NCBI GenBank assembly: GCA_963725665.1
Contig: CAVRZA010000011.1
Span: forward strand, 224,001 to 288,000
Source of the DNA: an uncultured Actinomycetes bacterium
Lineage (GTDB): Bacteria; Actinomycetota; Thermoleophilia; UBA2241
DNA: 64,000 nucleotides
Reading direction: 5' to 3'
The notes below the pieces were generated by a model. That model had not been told where the DNA came from, made no database searches, and was given only the letters and a program-made list of their open reading frames with translations. Made by a program: the position numbers and the translations under genes. Shown piece after piece: positions 7,915 to 14,296 of the stretch (its first letter is position 1; every line of letters starts with the position of its first letter).

Positions 7915-9381
7915 GTGAGCGTCGTCCTTGACGGCCTGAGCCTCACGATCGAAGACGTCGCGCGCGTCGCGCGGCACGGCGAGGCCGTATCGCCGGCGCC
8001 GCGCGCCCTCGCGCGCATGCGGCGCGCTCGCGATCTCGTGGAGGAGGCTTTACAGGAGGGGAGGTCCGTGTACGGGCTGACGACCGGGGTCGGCGCCCTC
8101 AAGCGGGCGCACATCGATCCGGCTGACGAGGTAGCCTTCAACCGCCGTCTCATCGGCACGCACCTCGTGGGCCAGGGCGCGCACGCGCCGCACGACGTCG
8201 TGCGCGCCCAGGCCCTGCGACTGGCCAACTTCTTCCTTTCCGGCGACCCCGGCGTCCGCCCCGAGCTCGCCGAGCGCCTCATCAGGCTCCTGAACGACGA
8301 CTTCCTGCCCGACGTGCACACGCTGGGCTCTCTCGGCCAGTCAGACCTCGCGCCCAACGCGGATCTCGCGCGCAGCCTGTTCGAGGGCTTCGACCCCGCC
8401 GCAGGTGAGACCCTCGCCACGCTCAACAACAACGCCTTCGCGACGGGATGGGCGGCTCTCGCCCTGGACGATGCGCGCCGCCTCGTCGACGCCGTCGAGG
8501 CCGGCGGCGCGCTAGCCCTGGAGGCCTTCGCCGCCAACCTCACCATGCTCCACCGCGCGATCGCCCGCCGGCGGCCCTACCACGGCTTGCAGACATCGCT
8601 TGATCGCCTGCGCACCCTCCTCGAGGGCAGCTTCCTGTGGCAGGAGGGGGCGGCCCGCAACCTGCAGGACCCGCTCACCTTCCGCAACCTCGTGCAGCTC
8701 CAGGGCGCCGCGCGCGACGCGCTCGACCACGCTCTGGACCAACTCGCCGTGGAGCTCAACGCCGCCCAGGGGAATCCGCTCGTCGTGCTCCGCGAGGAAC
8801 CGCACGCCGAGGCGAACGACGAGATGATCGGCCCCATCTCGGTCGGCGCCTACGACGTTCTCCCCCTGGCCGCCGCCCTCGACTACGTGCGCCTCGCCTT
8901 CGCCTCGATGCTCACCAGCGCCCACGAGCGCAGCCTCAAGCTCCTTGACACGCCCTGGTCGGGGCTGCCCACCGGCCTCGTGCCCGAGTCCGGCCCGCCC
9001 GAGAGCGGTCTCAGCCACTACGCCATCGCCGGCGAGGCGCTGGTCGCCGAAGCACGGCTGCTCGGCCACCCTGTATCGTTCGAGCTCGCCAGCTCGGCCG
9101 GCGCCGAGGGCATCGAGGACCGTGCCACGATGGCTCCACTGGCGGCGCGTCAGCTCGCCCAGCAGGTCGAACTCGGGGAGCGCGTCGCCGCCATCGGGCT
9201 CCTGGTCGCGGCGCAGGCCGTCGAGCTGCGCGGCATGACGCCGCTCGGCCGAGGCACGGTCCGCCTACTCGAGCTGGTGCGCGAGCAGGTGCCCTTCATG
9301 AGGGCCGGCGATCCCATGCCGAGCGACGTCGAGCCGCTCTTCCAGCTCGTACGCTCAGGGGCTCTCTCGGCCCTACCCTAG
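7915..9381 (+). CDS. aromatic amino acid lyase (HAL/PAL) family protein lacking the MIO-forming ASG motif
   Basis: VYGLTTGVG, LQDPLTFR, ELNAAQGNP, GLPTGL, IEDRATMA. GSLGQSDLAP replaces the canonical GSVGASGDLAP. Confidence 0.88.
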   Translation: MSVVLDGLSLTIEDVARVARHGEAVSPAPRALARMRRARDLVEEALQEGRSVYGLTTGVGALKRAHIDPADEVAFNRRLIGTHLVGQGAHAPHDVVRAQALRLANFFLSGDPGVRPELAERLIRLLNDDFLPDVHTLGSLGQSDLAPNADLARSLFEGFDPAAGETLATLNNNAFATGWAALALDDARRLVDAVEAGGALALEAFAANLTMLHRAIARRRPYHGLQTSLDRLRTLLEGSFLWQEGAARNLQDPLTFRNLVQLQGAARDALDHALDQLAVELNAAQGNPLVVLREEPHAEANDEMIGPISVGAYDVLPLAAALDYVRLAFASMLTSAHERSLKLLDTPWSGLPTGLVPESGPPESGLSHYAIAGEALVAEARLLGHPVSFELASSAGAEGIEDRATMAPLAARQLAQQVELGERVAAIGLLVAAQAVELRGMTPLGRGTVRLLELVREQVPFMRAGDPMPSDVEPLFQLVRSGALSALP

Positions 9382-9383
9382 CC

Positions 9384-9872
9384 AGCTCGGCGCCGGCCAG
9401 GGTCGGGACACCCTCTACTTCGCCGGCAGTGGGCTCCAGGTCGAGGCGCTCGACTACGCTGAGAGCGCGGTCGCGGCCGTGCGCGTCAAGGCGCGAACGG
9501 CCGGTCTTCAAGCGAACATCACGTCGCTGCAGCACGACGCGCGCGCCCTTGCCCTTCGGCGACGGGAGCTTCGACGCCTGCTACGCCCACATGCTCTTCT
9601 GCATGGCGTTCACGACCCGCGAGATCGAGGCCATCGCCGGCGAGGTCCGTCGTGTGCTGCGCCCACGCGGGCTCGTCCTCTATACAGCGCGCACCACGGC
9701 CGATCCCGACTTTGGCCGCAGCGTCGCAAGAGGCGAGGACATGTACGAGGTCGGCGGCTTCATCGTGCATTTCTTCAGTCTGGCTCAGGGATTCGAGCTC
9801 GTCGACGTGGTCGAGTTTGAAGAGGGGCCTCTCCCGCGGCGCCTGTTCAGAGTGACGATGCGCAAGGCGTAG
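9384..9872 (+). pseudogene. class I SAM-dependent methyltransferase remnant
   Basis: Motif I LGAGQGRD begins immediately after the lyase stop with no start codon; frameshift near 9548 into PLPFGDGSFDACYAHMLFC..RRVLRPRG. Confidence 0.7.
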
Positions 9873-9890: not shown

Positions 9891-10463
9891 TCAGTGCGCC
9901 GGATAAGGGAAGAACTCATCCTTTTCCCCTGCCTCCCAGCGCCGGCGCATCTCCGGGTCCGAGAGGTCCCAGTCAGGACGGATGCGGCGTGAGATCGCCC
10001 GGAAGTCCTGCCGCAGCTCCTCTGGCGTAGGGCGCCCCCAATACCAGTAACCGTTGTAGATCCTGTACACCACGAGGCCCGGCTCCAGCATGACCGTGTA
10101 CGGCACGATCGGCTCGTGGTGCGGGTCGGTGTACTCGACGATGTCGAGCTCACGCTGCACGACCTTGCGCAGGTCCGAGAGGAACGGCCAGTGCGCGCCC
10201 AGGCTCTGTTTCCACTCCAGACAGCCGAGCACGCTGTCGGTCGACGAGATCGTGACGATCTTCGAGTAGGCCACGTCGATCTCGGGCTCCATCGCTGCCA
10301 GCAACACGTGCTGGCGGTGGTCTTTCGGTCAGTAGCTCCCTCGCGAGAGGACGAGGCACAAGGGGTCGTTTCCCTGGATCTCCGAGAGGCGATGCCTGTT
10401 GCCCGTCTCATCGGGCAGCTCGAAGTCGGGGAACGCGGAACCGGGCACGATGTCGGGGCGCAT
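9891..10463 (-). CDS. peroxiredoxin-like (AhpC/TSA, redoxin) protein, probable selenoprotein (U45)
   Basis: ATG 10463 after AGGAGG. FPDFELPDETG..LSE..LVLSRGSY-[TGA 10329-10331]-PKDHRQH continues in frame to ..WPFLSD..YNGYWYWGRP. The TGA sits at the redoxin CP cysteine position. Confidence 0.8.
10297..10315 (-). promoter_or_regulatory. candidate bacterial SECIS hairpin
   Basis: Perfect 7-bp stem GCCAGCA/TGCTGGC with loop CGTGT, starting 13 nt downstream of the in-frame TGA. Confidence 0.6.
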
Positions 10464-10669
10464 CGATCCTCCTGTTCGGACCGGGCCTCGCCCAGGGCAA
10501 GGCCTCCTTCGATAGACGAGTACCTCGCCGATGGCGGCTTCGAAACCGGCAGCGCCCTTGACCACGCACCGCTACCCCATCTCATCGTTCGCCGTCCTCA
10601 GGCCGATACGTATGACACCGGCAGCGTTCACACCCGACACGGCTGGAAGAGAGGTCGCAGACGCAGACG

Positions 10670-11053
10670 ATGAAGCCAGGGGATGCGCGAGAACACGCTG
10701 ATCGCCGCGGCCCGCAACCAGATCGAGACGCCGTGAGCGGCACGCCACGCGATCGAGTGCTCTTCTGGCTTCTGCTCGGCCTCTGGGCCTTCAACGCCAC
10801 CGACCTGCTGCTCACGCGGCGCGCCATCGCCCTCGGCCGGGCGCAAGAGGCCAACGGGGTGATGAGGGTGCTGTTGCAGGCCGGCAGCCTACCGGCGTAC
10901 ACCTTCAAGATCGGCTTCGTGACCCTCGGCGTAGTCCTGCTCTGGCGGCTGCGGTCGCATCACGCCGTGCTGCTTGCCGCCACACTCCTCGCCGCATCCT
11001 TCGCCGTTGTAGTCAGCTACGAGGCTCTCTGGGTCTGGAGCCTCATGCGCTAG
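10670..11053 (+). CDS. small membrane protein, DUF5658-like
   Basis: NATDLLLT..G.AQEANGVM..K pattern with three hydrophobic segments. Confidence 0.65.
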   Translation: MKPGDAREHADRRGPQPDRDAVSGTPRDRVLFWLLLGLWAFNATDLLLTRRAIALGRAQEANGVMRVLLQAGSLPAYTFKIGFVTLGVVLLWRLRSHHAVLLAATLLAASFAVVVSYEALWVWSLMR

Positions 11054-11144: not shown

Positions 11145-11220
11145 CACCCCAGCGCTGTCTCACCCCTCAGCGCCGTCTCACCCCTCAGCGCTGCCCCACC
11201 CCTCAGCGCTGCCCCACCCG
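11145..11220. repeat. 18-bp tandem repeat (about 4 copies)
   Basis: CACCCCTCAGCGCTGCCC-like units overlapping the 3' end of the ABC ATPase gene. Confidence 0.8.
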
Positions 11221-13382
11221 GCGCGCTGCAGCTCGCGCAACTCGTCGGGAGGGATGTGGCAGAGGTACCGATGGCCGCCGCCTGCATCACGCCACGGCGG
11301 CATCACGTTCACACAGATGTCGCCCAGGAAGCGGTGGCAACGCGTGTGGAAGCGGCATCCACTGGGCGGCTCAGCCAGGCTCGGCACCGGCCCGCCGAGC
11401 GGGATGCGCTCGTGGGGATGCTCAAAGTCGAGCGTGGGAATGGCCGACATGAGCGCCTCGGTATAAGGGTGCTGCGGCGGGGTGAACACATCTTCGGCCG
11501 ACCCGATCTCCATGAGCTTGGCGAGATACATGACGGCGATCCGGTCGGACAGATAGCGCACTACTGCCAGATCGTGCGAGATGAAGATGTAGGAGACACC
11601 CTCTGTCGCCTGCAGCTCCGCGAGCAGATTGAGGATGCTGGCCTGCACCGAGACGTCGAGGGCCGACGCCGGCTCGTCGCAAACGACCAGCGTCGGCCGG
11701 CCGGCGAACGCGCGCGCGATGGCGATGCGCTGCTTTTGGCCGCCCGACAGCTCGGTCGGCTTCGCCTCGAGGTGCTGCCTCTCTACCCGGACACGCTCGG
11801 CGAGCTCCTCGACGCGCTTGCGGCGCTCGTTCCCGCTCAGACCGCCGAGCCGACCGACGGCCCGGCTCAGGATCCCACCCGCCGACCACGCGGGGTTGAG
11901 CGTGGCATCGGGGTTCTGGAAGACCATCTGGATGGCGCGCAGCGTGTCGAAGCCACGCTTCGACACGCTGTCGGCCAACAGATGGTCGCGGAAGCGCAGC
12001 TCGCCGCTATCGGGAGAAAGGAGCCCGGTGACGCAGTTGGCGAGGGTGGTCTTGCCGCTGCCGGACTCGCCGACCAGACCCAGGATCTCGCCGGCGCCGA
12101 CCTCGATGCTGACGTCGTCGACCGCACCGACGCGTCGACGGCCGTCCTTGAAGACCTTCGAAAGGCCGCCGACGACCAGGGTGCTGCCGCCGGACGGCGG
12201 TCCCGCCACTGGCCCGGCGGCTGCGGCAGGCACTGCCGTTTCGGCCGACGCGCCGGCTGCCGCCGGCCGCACAGGTGCCGCCGGTCGGGCGGCCGCCGCT
12301 CTCATACTCGGCACCAGCTCCGAGAAGTAGCAGCGCGCGCGTCGCGCTGACACGTCGGTCGCACTGCTCCCGGGATCGAGCGCCGGTCCAGGCCACGCGA
12401 ACAGATCGGGCTCGCGCGCGCGGCACTCCGGCTGCACGAGCTCGCAGCGCGGCGCGAAGACGCAGCCCGGCAGCTCGCTGCCGAGCCGCGGCAGGAACCC
12501 TGGGATGGGCACCAGTGTCGACTGGTCCTTGCGCGCGCCGAAGCGCGGCACGCAGCGCAGCAGGCCCATCGTGTAGGGGTGGCGCGGGTCGGTGAACAGG
12601 TCGCGGGCCGGCCCACCTTCGACGATCCGGCCCGCGTACATCACACCGACCCGCTCGCACAGTCGCGCCACGAGGCCGAGGTTGTGGCTGATCAGAAGGA
12701 TCGCCGCGTCGATACGCTTGCGCAGCTCCTCGATGAGGTCGAGCACCTCGGCCTCGACCGTGGCGTCGAGTCCGGTCGTGGGTTCGTCGAGCACGAGCAG
12801 GCGCGGGTCGCCGGCCAGCGCCATAGCGATCACCACCCGTTGCTGCTGGCCGCCCGAGAGCTGGAACGGGTAGCGCCGTAAGACCACGCCGGGGTCGGGC
12901 ATGGCGACGCGCTCGAGCGCGCCGCGGGCGCGCTCGAGCGCGTCGCGCTTGGACAGCCCGAAGTGGAAGCGGTAGACCTCGGCGACCTGGTCGCCGACGC
13001 GGATCGACGGGTTGAGCGCGGTGGCGGGGTCCTGGTAGACCATGCCGAGCTTGGTCCCACGAAGCTCGCGCAGCCGTTCCGCGGGCAAGCTCAACATGTC
13101 GTCGCCATCGAAGGTGATACGCCCCCGGTCGACGCGCCCGTTCAGCGGCAGATAGCGCATCAGCGCCAGGGCCGTCGTCGTCTTGCCGCAACCCGACTCG
13201 CCGACCAGACCGTAGGCCTCGCCGGCACCGATCTCGAGCGACACGCCCGTCACGACCGGCAGCTCGCGGTCGCGGCGCACGAAGGTCACGTGCAGGTCGT
13301 CGATCTCGAGGACCGGGACGCCGGCCCGCCGCACGGGATCAGGAACGTCGCGCATGTGCGTCATGGCGCCGTCCCCTGTCAT
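11178..13382 (-). CDS. peptide/nickel ABC transporter, fused double ATPase (DppD-DppF-like)
   Basis: Two Walker A motifs (GESGCGKT, GESGSGKT), two LSGGQ signatures, HPYT and Cys-rich oligo_HPY C-terminal domains. Confidence 0.92.
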   Translation of the reverse strand: MTGDGAMTHMRDVPDPVRRAGVPVLEIDDLHVTFVRRDRELPVVTGVSLEIGAGEAYGLVGESGCGKTTTALALMRYLPLNGRVDRGRITFDGDDMLSLPAERLRELRGTKLGMVYQDPATALNPSIRVGDQVAEVYRFHFGLSKRDALERARGALERVAMPDPGVVLRRYPFQLSGGQQQRVVIAMALAGDPRLLVLDEPTTGLDATVEAEVLDLIEELRKRIDAAILLISHNLGLVARLCERVGVMYAGRIVEGGPARDLFTDPRHPYTMGLLRCVPRFGARKDQSTLVPIPGFLPRLGSELPGCVFAPRCELVQPECRAREPDLFAWPGPALDPGSSATDVSARRARCYFSELVPSMRAAAARPAAPVRPAAAGASAETAVPAAAAGPVAGPPSGGSTLVVGGLSKVFKDGRRRVGAVDDVSIEVGAGEILGLVGESGSGKTTLANCVTGLLSPDSGELRFRDHLLADSVSKRGFDTLRAIQMVFQNPDATLNPAWSAGGILSRAVGRLGGLSGNERRKRVEELAERVRVERQHLEAKPTELSGGQKQRIAIARAFAGRPTLVVCDEPASALDVSVQASILNLLAELQATEGVSYIFISHDLAVVRYLSDRIAVMYLAKLMEIGSAEDVFTPPQHPYTEALMSAIPTLDFEHPHERIPLGGPVPSLAEPPSGCRFHTRCHRFLGDICVNVMPPWRDAGGGHRYLCHIPPDELRELQRAGWGSAEGWGSAEG

Positions 13383-14296
13383 TCCGCCAGCGCCTTGCGC
13401 AAGCCGTCGGCCACCAGGTTCGCGCCCACAACGAGGGTGGCGAGAGCGAGTGCGGGAAACGTGACCGCCCACCACGCTACCTGGATCACTTCCTTCTGCT
13501 GCGAGATGGTCAGCCCCCAGTCGGCGGAAGGCGGCTGGACGCCAAACCCGAGGAACGACAGCGTCGCAGCGGTGAAGACCGCGTAGCCGAGTCGCACTGT
13601 GCCTTCGACGATGACCGGCGAGAGGATGTTGGGCACGATCTCCGCGGCCATGATGAAGCCGGCCCGCTCGCCCCGCAGGCGCGCGGCCTGTACGTACTCC
13701 TTCTCGCGCTCCGACACGACGGCCGCGCGGATGGTACGCGCGACCGGGGCCATGAAGAGGATGCCGATCGTCACAGTGATGGCTGCCAGAGAGTGGCCGA
13801 GGGCGGAGACGACGACGATCGCCGCGACAATGATCGGCAGGGCCAGCAGCACGTCGACGCCGCGCATCGTGACCTCGTCCGTGTACCCCTTGTAGAAGCC
13901 GGCGATCAGGCCGAGGGCTCCGCCCATGAGCAGCGCCAGGAGCGTGGCGAGCGGCGCGATGACCAGTACCGTGCGAGCCCCCGCGAGCGTGCGCGAGAGC
14001 ACGTCGCGGCCCAGGTTGTCGGTCCCGAACCAGTGCAGCGAGCTCGGCGGCTTGAGGACGTTGAAGAGGTCGGTCTCGAACGGACCCCAGCGCGTGATGT
14101 AGGTCGAGAACAGCGCCATGAAGATCCAGAAGAGAAGGATCCCGAGACCGATGAGGAACGTGGGGCTGCGCCGCAGAGCGCGAACCACGTAGCGGCGGCG
14201 GAGCTGCCGTTCCGTCGGCTCCGCGGCCAGCTCGATGGCGGCCAGGTCCTCGAAGGGACTGGGCTCGGGCAGTGGCTCGGGGGTTCGGAGGGCCAT
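13379..14296 (-). CDS. peptide ABC transporter permease (DppC-like)
   Basis: HWFGTDNLGRDV, EYVQAARLRG, LSFLGFGVQPPSADWG. Confidence 0.92.
   Translation of the reverse strand: MALRTPEPLPEPSPFEDLAAIELAAEPTERQLRRRYVVRALRRSPTFLIGLGILLFWIFMALFSTYITRWGPFETDLFNVLKPPSSLHWFGTDNLGRDVLSRTLAGARTVLVIAPLATLLALLMGGALGLIAGFYKGYTDEVTMRGVDVLLALPIIVAAIVVVSALGHSLAAITVTIGILFMAPVARTIRAAVVSEREKEYVQAARLRGERAGFIMAAEIVPNILSPVIVEGTVRLGYAVFTAATLSFLGFGVQPPSADWGLTISQQKEVIQVAWWAVTFPALALATLVVGANLVADGLRKALAE

Follow-up and report, generated by a model that had tools for sequence, protein, structure and literature searches.

A probable selenocysteine-containing redoxin with a U-x-x-D motif in an uncultured bacterium of the class Thermoleophilia

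Peroxiredoxins (Prx) that contain selenocysteine (Sec), together with several peroxiredoxin-like (Prx-like) families, have long been known (PMC13188914, PMC2398784, PMC1794560). Table 1 of PMC13188914 (2026) catalogues 119 prokaryotic selenoprotein families and subfamilies, including Prx (TxxU), Prx-like (UxxC/UxxU), Prx-like cd02970 (UxxS), Redoxin (UxxC) and Prx-SUH (CxxU), and its authors place proteins with another Sec motif in a subfamily of their own. Here we describe a redoxin gene interrupted by an in-frame UGA in a stretch of 64,000 nucleotides (the window) from an uncultured Actinomycetes bacterium of the class Thermoleophilia (GenBank assembly GCA_963725665.1, contig CAVRZA010000011.1, positions 224,001 to 288,000). 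The gene lies on the minus strand at positions 9891..10463 of the window. To judge from the sequence evidence set out below, it very probably encodes a genuine selenoprotein that is made by the known recoding mechanism and belongs to a seemingly uncatalogued subfamily. No family with a U-x-x-D/E motif is among the 119 of that table, and a full-text literature search for a UxxD, UxxE or CxxD motif with selenocysteine found none.

An earlier note on this DNA, made from the letters and a list of open reading frames (ORFs), had pointed to two ORF fragments in one frame that are split only by a TGA in RGSY-U-PKD. The coordinates and the read-through translation agree with that description. The ORF list places 10329..10565 and 9891..10307 in a single minus-strand frame. 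The upstream fragment, as a standard gene finder sees the gene, ends at the internal UGA, and its true start is the ATG at 10463-10461; the downstream fragment starts at an internal GTG. Briefly, reading through the TGA yields a single protein of 190 residues from 10463 to 9894, MRPDIVPGSAFPDFELPD...LVLSRGSY-U-PKDHRQHVLLAAMEPE...FFPYPAH. The complete coding sequence (9891..10463, 190 codons plus terminator) specifies an AhpC/TSA-fold redoxin with a C-terminal extension, and a Shine-Dalgarno-like AGGAGG, read from the sequence, is located at 10468..10473, 4 nt upstream of the ATG. The in-frame UGA, which we read as selenocysteine, is codon 45 (10329..10331). UGA occurs twice in the gene, once internally and once as the stop (codon 191, 9893-9891). 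Since the gene itself terminates with TGA, a genome-wide reassignment of UGA does not fit. The redoxin is the only copy of its family in its genome, as it is in the relatives G041 and G051 (G, C and L numbers are our labels for genomes, contigs and loci). Compared with the other forms it has a one-residue insertion, which shifts the alignment after codon 74.

We found that Cys and TGA codons alternate at this position among homologues, as the earlier note had anticipated. In the column of codon 45, DNA reading gave TGA in the window and in nine other genomes or metagenome-assembled genomes (MAGs), and TGC or TGT in 154 loci. A match was present in 12 of the nearest 61 genomes, with TGA in G000, G041 and G051; the remaining members of the redoxin family had Cys. 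The best 80 loci in contigs of a one-genome-per-species set had TGC in 58 cases, TGT in 16 and TGA in five (L036, L038, L039, L040 and L052), to which L115 is added. The locus L052 comes from a Thermomicrobiales MAG. L115 (G076:C50), from a Thermoleophilia MAG, is a TGA form whose frame shifts at approximately codon 40, some five codons before the TGA. When the search was made in an even sample of 401 genomes of the class, the gene was detected in 58 (E <= 1e-20), and nine of the 58 had TGA at the column: G000, G041, G051, G081, G111, G197, G091, G094 and the frameshifted G076. G081, G197 and G094 were translated directly; G111, G091 and G076 are, by their contig coordinates, apparently the same records as L039, L040 and L115. 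The best 80 loci among JGI metagenome contigs had 61 TGC, 19 TGT and no TGA; one metagenome search pattern requires a Cys codon, and this best-80 result is little guide to the frequency of the TGA form.

Some apparent extra TGA forms in the scan of the class were rejected. G248, G330 and G377 are Cys forms in which the TGA is the ordinary terminator, and G173 holds a frameshifted Cys-form gene. The latter locus, L221 (G173:C99:5845-6959), comes from a genome of the window's own taxonomic family and goes out of frame beyond about codon 68, which suggests a pseudogene or a misassembly.

A quick maximum-likelihood tree was inferred from 98 rows after masking of the Sec/Cys column; L115, one duplicate and sequences that failed the motif or length filters were left out. 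Eight actinobacterial TGA forms and five Cys forms grouped into a well-supported clade of 13 rows, and L052 fell in a different well-supported clade. Read from this tree, the well-supported branches would force at least two changes between Cys and Sec. Sec and Cys versions that are 69% identical occur naturally within one taxonomic family (G000 and G182), which offers a clean setting in which to study the advantage of Sec over Cys.

Annotation routinely misses selenoprotein genes by taking UGA for a stop, and the idea that standard pipelines would split this gene proved right. Of the 120 database clusters closest to the C-terminal part, 26 are fragments of 128-144 amino acids (aa), the kind of piece that the downstream ORF represents, and they are named 'hypothetical protein', 'peroxiredoxin' or nothing. 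These fragments start with M-E-P-E-I or V-(W/L)-L-A-A-M-E-P-E, 8-13 codons past the Sec column. Six of the 26 equal loci in which we read the TGA in the DNA, and for the rest we infer the upstream stop.

The Sec machinery that such a reading implies was found in the genome, again in line with the earlier note. The genes selD (334 bits, with one in-frame TGA), selA (525 bits) and selB (315 bits) scored above the curated cut-offs, and a tRNA-Sec was identified by Rfam (74.2 bits, above cut-off) and called SeC(tca) by ARAGORN. The machinery shares a contig with the window (C11:541083-550134) at a distance of about 310 kb from the redoxin gene, with selD, selA and selB in a cluster and the tRNA-Sec about 4 kb further on. 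We found selA above cut-off in all five other TGA-bearing genomes tested and in 47 of the 61 relatives. The latter include Cys-form genomes, so the machinery is a trait of the clade, necessary for the TGA form but not discriminating.

The window redoxin would be the fifth selenoprotein gene of the organism. Two tandem BCP-type peroxiredoxin genes (C11:102566-102925 and 103161-103520, minus strand) have an in-frame TGA at the canonical peroxidatic position, in the motifs Y-P-K-A-S-T-P-G-U (STPG-U-TTEAVEF) and Y-P-E-A-S-T-S-G-U (STSG-U-TKEAVEF), followed by hairpins of 10-11 bp with an AGUU loop 16 nt past the UGA. An FdhA-like gene (C7:27302-29383, plus strand), which scored below the TIGR01553 cut-off, carries its in-frame TGA in SIDHCART-U-HAPT, followed by a 7-bp hairpin whose loop, GGUCU, is 18 nt past the UGA. 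The fourth is selD, with its UGA in AAKSG-U-ASKVG. Elsewhere in the class, the locus L032 (G039:C22:29991-30221) has another, distinct Prx-like selenoprotein gene, one that belongs to the known UxxC type (FNRGFT-U-PFCRAH).

To be read as Sec, a bacterial UGA is expected to be followed by a selenocysteine insertion sequence (SECIS). The earlier note had described a perfect 7-bp hairpin with a G-containing loop 13 nt past the TGA, and its exact coordinates confirm this. After a spacer of 13 nt (10328-10316), the candidate bacterial SECIS (bSECIS) hairpin at 10297..10315 is formed by GCCAGCA (10315-10309), the loop CGUGU (10308-10304, CGTGT in the DNA) and UGCUGGC (10303-10297). The bSECIS model, as given in the legend of Fig. 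2 of PMC13188914, has a loop of 3-9 nt with G in the first two loop positions, a stem of 4-16 bp, a distance of 16-37 nt from UGA to loop, and an energy <= -7.5 kcal/mol. We checked sequences with our own implementation of this published model, in a strict version (no bulge) and a version that allows one irregularity. The window hairpin satisfies all four constraints, with the loop CGUGU (G at position 2, then U), 7 bp, 20 nt between UGA and loop, and -10.9 kcal/mol. With one irregularity allowed, 7 of the 10 TGA forms passed, as did 16 of the 154 Cys forms at the same place and 27% of the random TGA triplets of the genome. The hairpin common among TGA forms is GCCAGC-A-C-GUGU-G-GCUGGC, with a bulged A. 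The geometry of the window hairpin resembles that of the hairpins in the Prx and FdhA genes of its own genome. Under criteria chosen after the window hairpin had been seen, a perfect 7-bp stem at a spacing of 8-16 nt, closed by a loop of 4-7 nt containing GU, was found behind only 198 of the genome's 85,150 TGA triplets (0.23%); such a stem with any loop follows 0.9% of them.

The strongest RNA-level evidence for the hairpin is a constraint on synonymous codons. When the eight actinobacterial TGA forms were compared at positions with the same residue, the codons were identical in 190 of 265 comparisons (0.72) in the 13 codons past the UGA versus 1536 of 3200 (0.48) elsewhere. The gene-wide maximum of this identity (0.82) was found at codons 49-60, over the hairpin. 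In the Cys forms the values were 0.565 past the column versus 0.531 elsewhere, and none of 200 random octets of Cys forms reached the observed excess (maximum 0.206 versus 0.237).

Several observations weigh against the hairpin. In the strict, no-bulge version of the model, only 2 of the 10 TGA forms passed. Three of the 10 (L039, L197 and L052) also failed the version with one irregularity: a C-A mismatch interrupts the stem of L039 and of L197, and L052, which failed both versions, has a different and weaker arrangement. RNAalifold detected no covariation across the 10 TGA forms, with zero compensatory changes and one one-sided change, and only a 4-bp core (CAGC/GCUG) was common to them. Stability did not separate TGA from Cys forms: the mean energy of 57 nt was -13.4 kcal/mol in TGA forms and -14.9 kcal/mol in Cys forms, over 36 nt the difference reached only p = 0.017, and 76 of the 154 Cys forms were no less stable than the weakest TGA form. 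The Cys form L037 has a similar hairpin (GCCAGC-AUC-GCUGGC). Since Cys forms also have a hairpin, the pairing may partly stem from the conserved R-Q-H...L-A-A peptide. In addition, the TGA forms are related to one another, so counts across them are not independent.

Other RNA tests gave null results. The 66 nt around the UGA folded no better than shuffled sequences (z = -0.32), bulk folding energy being useless because the DNA is G+C-rich, and Rfam gave just two chance-level matches (E = 1 and 1.7). The sequence downstream of the UGA in the genome's own selD fails the bSECIS check, which means that the test is imperfect. We consider a SECIS role for the hairpin likely. What stands of the earlier suggestion of a SECIS-like hairpin is its position, its fit to the model and the synonymous constraint, on which this assessment rests; covariation does not add to it.

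Taking these data together with the alternation of UGA and Cys, the intact and conserved frame and the fold, all of which were observed directly, we regard it as highly likely that UGA45 is decoded as selenocysteine by SelB and Sec-tRNA(Sec) recruited by the downstream hairpin, giving a full-length 1-Sec redoxin. The other ways of explaining the TGA differ in how much of this they deny. Least credible, to the point of being negligible, is a sequencing or assembly error that hides a true TGC or TGT. The assembly has 12 contigs and an estimated contamination of 5%, which would leave room for an error, but TGA is present in nine other assemblies and also in a 340-nt contig that was assembled separately from a wetland metagenome of another study. 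This near-identical contig covers 10042-10380 with 10 differences and keeps the TGA, so that the TGA at 10329 on which the earlier note relied is not contradicted; in the runs X1-X3, parts of the stretch had no contig cover. The 24 runs listed for the sequence included no RNA run. We give very little weight to the idea of a dead or truncated gene, in which a nonsense mutation would leave a peptide of at most 44 aa and perhaps an independent C-terminal product of 133-138 aa. The splitting by gene callers and the C-terminal fragments among the closest clusters would be expected under it, and so would the frameshift in the relative L115, which represents either decay or an assembly error and counts against a functional gene. 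However, 10 sequences in two phyla share the TGA at this very codon, where it arose independently at least twice, and the nine TGA forms without that frameshift are all open from the ATG to the normal stop. The protein is as well conserved ahead of the TGA as behind it (mean aa identity over 36 pairs, 0.684 in codons 1-44 and 0.693 after the UGA). Of the 10 differences in the wetland contig, the seven listed are without exception synonymous and in third positions (upstream of the UGA, codons 39 and 41; downstream, codons 47, 89, 104, 121 and 126). The fold would moreover need both parts of this single-copy gene, because strands at residues 15-40 precede the UGA.

The remaining explanations accept a living gene. 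UGA45 might be read through without Sec, by a near-cognate tRNA (Trp or Cys) or by some other recoding, with the hairpin merely slowing termination. This gains some room from the indirect nature of the case for Sec insertion, and from the lack of covariation and the three TGA forms outside the bSECIS model; still, we find it very unlikely. UGA45 stands at the family's one invariant redox Cys, where exchange of Cys and Sec is the known pattern, the machinery is present in all six TGA-bearing genomes tested (the window's included, the five others by selA), and the Prx, FdhA and SelD genes of the same genome have UGA at their canonical Sec sites. Trp in place of the catalytic Cys would inactivate the enzyme, yet the whole protein is under purifying selection. 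More room, although it remains an unlikely account, is left for Sec insertion that does not depend on the 7-bp hairpin. SelB would then recognise another or larger structure, and the hairpin would be a by-product of the R-Q-H-V-(L/W)-L-A-A codons. The similar hairpins possible in Cys forms and the short core common to the TGA forms fit such a by-product, and the failure of L052, L039, L197 and the genome's own selD means that the model or its implementation is incomplete. Against this, the synonymous constraint peaks exactly on the hairpin and in TGA forms only, the geometry matches the Prx and FdhA hairpins of the same genome, and such a hairpin is rare behind TGA triplets in that genome.

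Under the reading that we prefer, decoding as Sec, SelB-GTP carrying Sec-tRNA(Sec) would be recruited by the mRNA hairpin that starts 13 nt past UGA45. UGA45 would then be decoded as Sec and the chain would continue, while the UGA at codon 191, with no such element, would lead to termination. In this scheme Sec insertion, the use of the hairpin by SelB, and the chemistry and substrate of the protein are inferred.

To characterize the protein, we analyzed its family, its predicted fold and the position of its putative active site. Pfam AhpC-TSA (PF00578) matched residues 8-128 with 40.3 bits (cut-off 26). No NCBIfam model came near its cut-off, the nearest selenoprotein models being SelL_rel_redox NF040769 (16.6 versus 120 bits) and WAxxUGC_long NF041054 (15.2 versus 300). 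Related proteins of about 190 aa number more than 5,000 in the databases (E <= 0.001), where those with names appear as 'peroxiredoxin' or 'redoxin domain-containing protein'. Across 42 aligned homologues, the TGA column is the sole invariant Cys, within the consensus A-R-G-G-Y-C-P-K-E-H; the family motif RGxxCPKD given in the earlier note was correct. R41, G42, C45 and P46 are invariant and K47 is nearly so, and W-x-F-L-x-D, E-Y-x-D and G-Y-W-x-x-G-R-P form other invariant blocks. Asp48 stands at +3 of Sec45, which makes the motif UxxD rather than UxxC, as had been noted. The +3 residue is Asp or Glu in 79 of the best 80 one-genome-per-species loci; the one locus outside this count, L115, has a broken frame at that place.

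The AlphaFold2 model (mean pLDDT 91.7, pTM 0.87) places residue 45 between a strand (35-40) and a helix (46-64), at the N-terminus of the helix. The first strand begins at residue 15, so the sequence opens directly with the fold. The best fold matches were BCP-type peroxiredoxins (5epf, 3hjp) and ResA/TlpA thiol-disulfide oxidoreductases, with BcpB, ResA and Bcp4 among them. The top structural match was Mycobacterium tuberculosis BcpB (5epf), with a TM-score of 0.71 normalised to the query and 0.86 normalised to the target; the ResA/TlpA-type matches (3c71, 2f9s) had target-normalised values of 0.83-0.87. In the HMMER alignment to ResA, Sec45 falls on the attacking Cys74 of W-C-P-H-C and Asp48 on Cys77, and the following Pro is common to both. 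In the alignment to BcpB, Sec45 falls on the Thr of T-P-G-C and Asp48 on the peroxidatic Cys. The PxxxTxxC signature is absent from the motif L-S-R-G-S-Y-U-P-K-D, which has neither Pro at -4 nor Thr at -3 of Asp48, and canonical peroxidase chemistry is therefore not expected at the Sec45 site. By these alignments, Sec45 occupies the attacking position of the thioredoxin type (the first Cys of CxxC) and not that of a peroxidatic Cys, and the protein is Prx-like in fold without being a canonical peroxiredoxin. The earlier description of a peroxiredoxin-like gene with UGA at the catalytic Cys thus holds in that the UGA replaces the sole invariant Cys of the family, but the position corresponds to the first Cys of ResA-type proteins.

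This placement suggests a possible course of catalysis. The selenolate of Sec45, at the N-terminus of helix 46-64 and directly past strand 35-40, would attack the oxidised substrate, and the oxidised intermediate (a selenenic acid or a selenenyl-sulfide) would be resolved by an outside thiol or a partner protein. As the +3 residue is Asp or Glu and not Cys, the protein would be a 1-Sec (monoselenol) redoxin, and since the redoxin family has no second conserved Cys either, resolution would need an external thiol or partner.

Two side observations concern the protein family. All eight actinobacterial TGA forms, as well as their nearest Cys forms (L037/L196 and L221), retain Cys36 (10356-10358, in D-P-L/M-C-L); position 36 is Ile or Leu in most of the redoxin family and in L052. 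From this distribution Cys36 is a possible second thiol specific to the clade. Separately, a database protein of 335 aa, P0002, matched the 192-aa query P0001 with 440 bits and 57% identity over 95% of the query; it is possibly a fused form of the family or one with two domains in tandem.

The genes around the redoxin in the window are an aromatic amino acid lyase (Lyase_aromatic, 7915-9381, plus strand), a short ORF with a methyltransferase domain (9429-9872, plus strand), a DUF5658 protein (10670-11053, plus strand) and a 765-aa fused double ATPase of an oligopeptide-type ABC transporter (11178-13475, minus strand). This neighbourhood is not conserved among TGA forms, and none of these genes was found beside the orthologues. 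The neighbours of other TGA forms include Nudix downstream in two loci, FmdE upstream with an MFS transporter downstream in two, a pyridine-nucleotide disulfide oxidoreductase upstream in one and a solute-binding protein in one. The lack of conservation means that there is no operon-based clue to function. The pyridine-nucleotide disulfide oxidoreductase (L199:3-1457 in G197; Pyr_redox_2 plus dimerisation domain) lies directly upstream of the redoxin gene in that genome and is not beside it in the other loci; going by its position, it is a conceivable reductase partner.

The window gene thus very probably encodes a selenoprotein of a known kind and probably represents a new subfamily. We propose more tentatively, at a little short of an even chance, that it is the founding example of an uncatalogued 1-Sec 'R-G-x-Y-U-P-K-D/E' redoxin subfamily with an acidic residue in place of the resolving Cys, which is widespread in soil and sediment Actinomycetota of the class Thermoleophilia, arose at least twice from Cys forms, once more in Thermomicrobiales, and has been held publicly throughout as truncated 'hypothetical proteins'. 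A literature search by titles and abstract openings retrieved no study of the selenoproteins of Thermoleophilia. The genome list of BSepDB includes the class (64 mentions), and that database may already file the gene under a Prx-like heading. Because the recoding mechanism is standard, the finding extends the catalogue and adds no new principle. It adds a family in which Sec alternates with Cys and which combines one redox residue with the unusual motif U-x-x-D/E, and, if the proposal is true, the acidic +3 residue would point to chemistry unlike that of UxxC, UxxS and UxxT selenoproteins.

Compared with known systems, the redoxin resembles each of several groups in part. Like the Prx-like cd02970 (UxxS) proteins, compared here by motif only, it has a single Sec with a non-Cys residue at +3, but its motif is UxxD/E. 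The PrxU-type (PxxxTxxU) and BCP/PrxQ peroxiredoxins share the AhpC-TSA domain with it and provide the best structural match (BcpB, 5epf). Two true PrxU-type genes occur in the same genome. The PxxxTxxC signature is absent from the window redoxin, which has Sec45 at the Thr and Asp48 at the peroxidatic Cys. The ResA/TlpA-type proteins are alike in fold, and Sec45 corresponds to the Cys74 position, but ResA has its second Cys (Cys77) where the window family has Asp or Glu. ResA is extracytoplasmic and membrane-anchored. The L032 protein of the UxxC type is a distant relative of the window redoxin, with 30% identity over 77 residues (E = 2.3e-4 in a one-genome search). More generally, the Prx-like thiol:disulfide oxidoreductase selenoproteins (PF00578, UxxC/UxxU; PMC13188914) have in common with it the AhpC/TSA thioredoxin fold and recoding by UGA and SECIS, and their Sec is likewise the first residue of a CxxC-equivalent motif, right past R-G-x-x. 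They differ in having a resolving Cys or Sec at +3, where the window redoxin has Asp48 and its family Asp or Glu, and the redoxin family is set apart from them by a conserved C-terminal extension of about 60 aa (YNGYWYWGRP...RPDWD).

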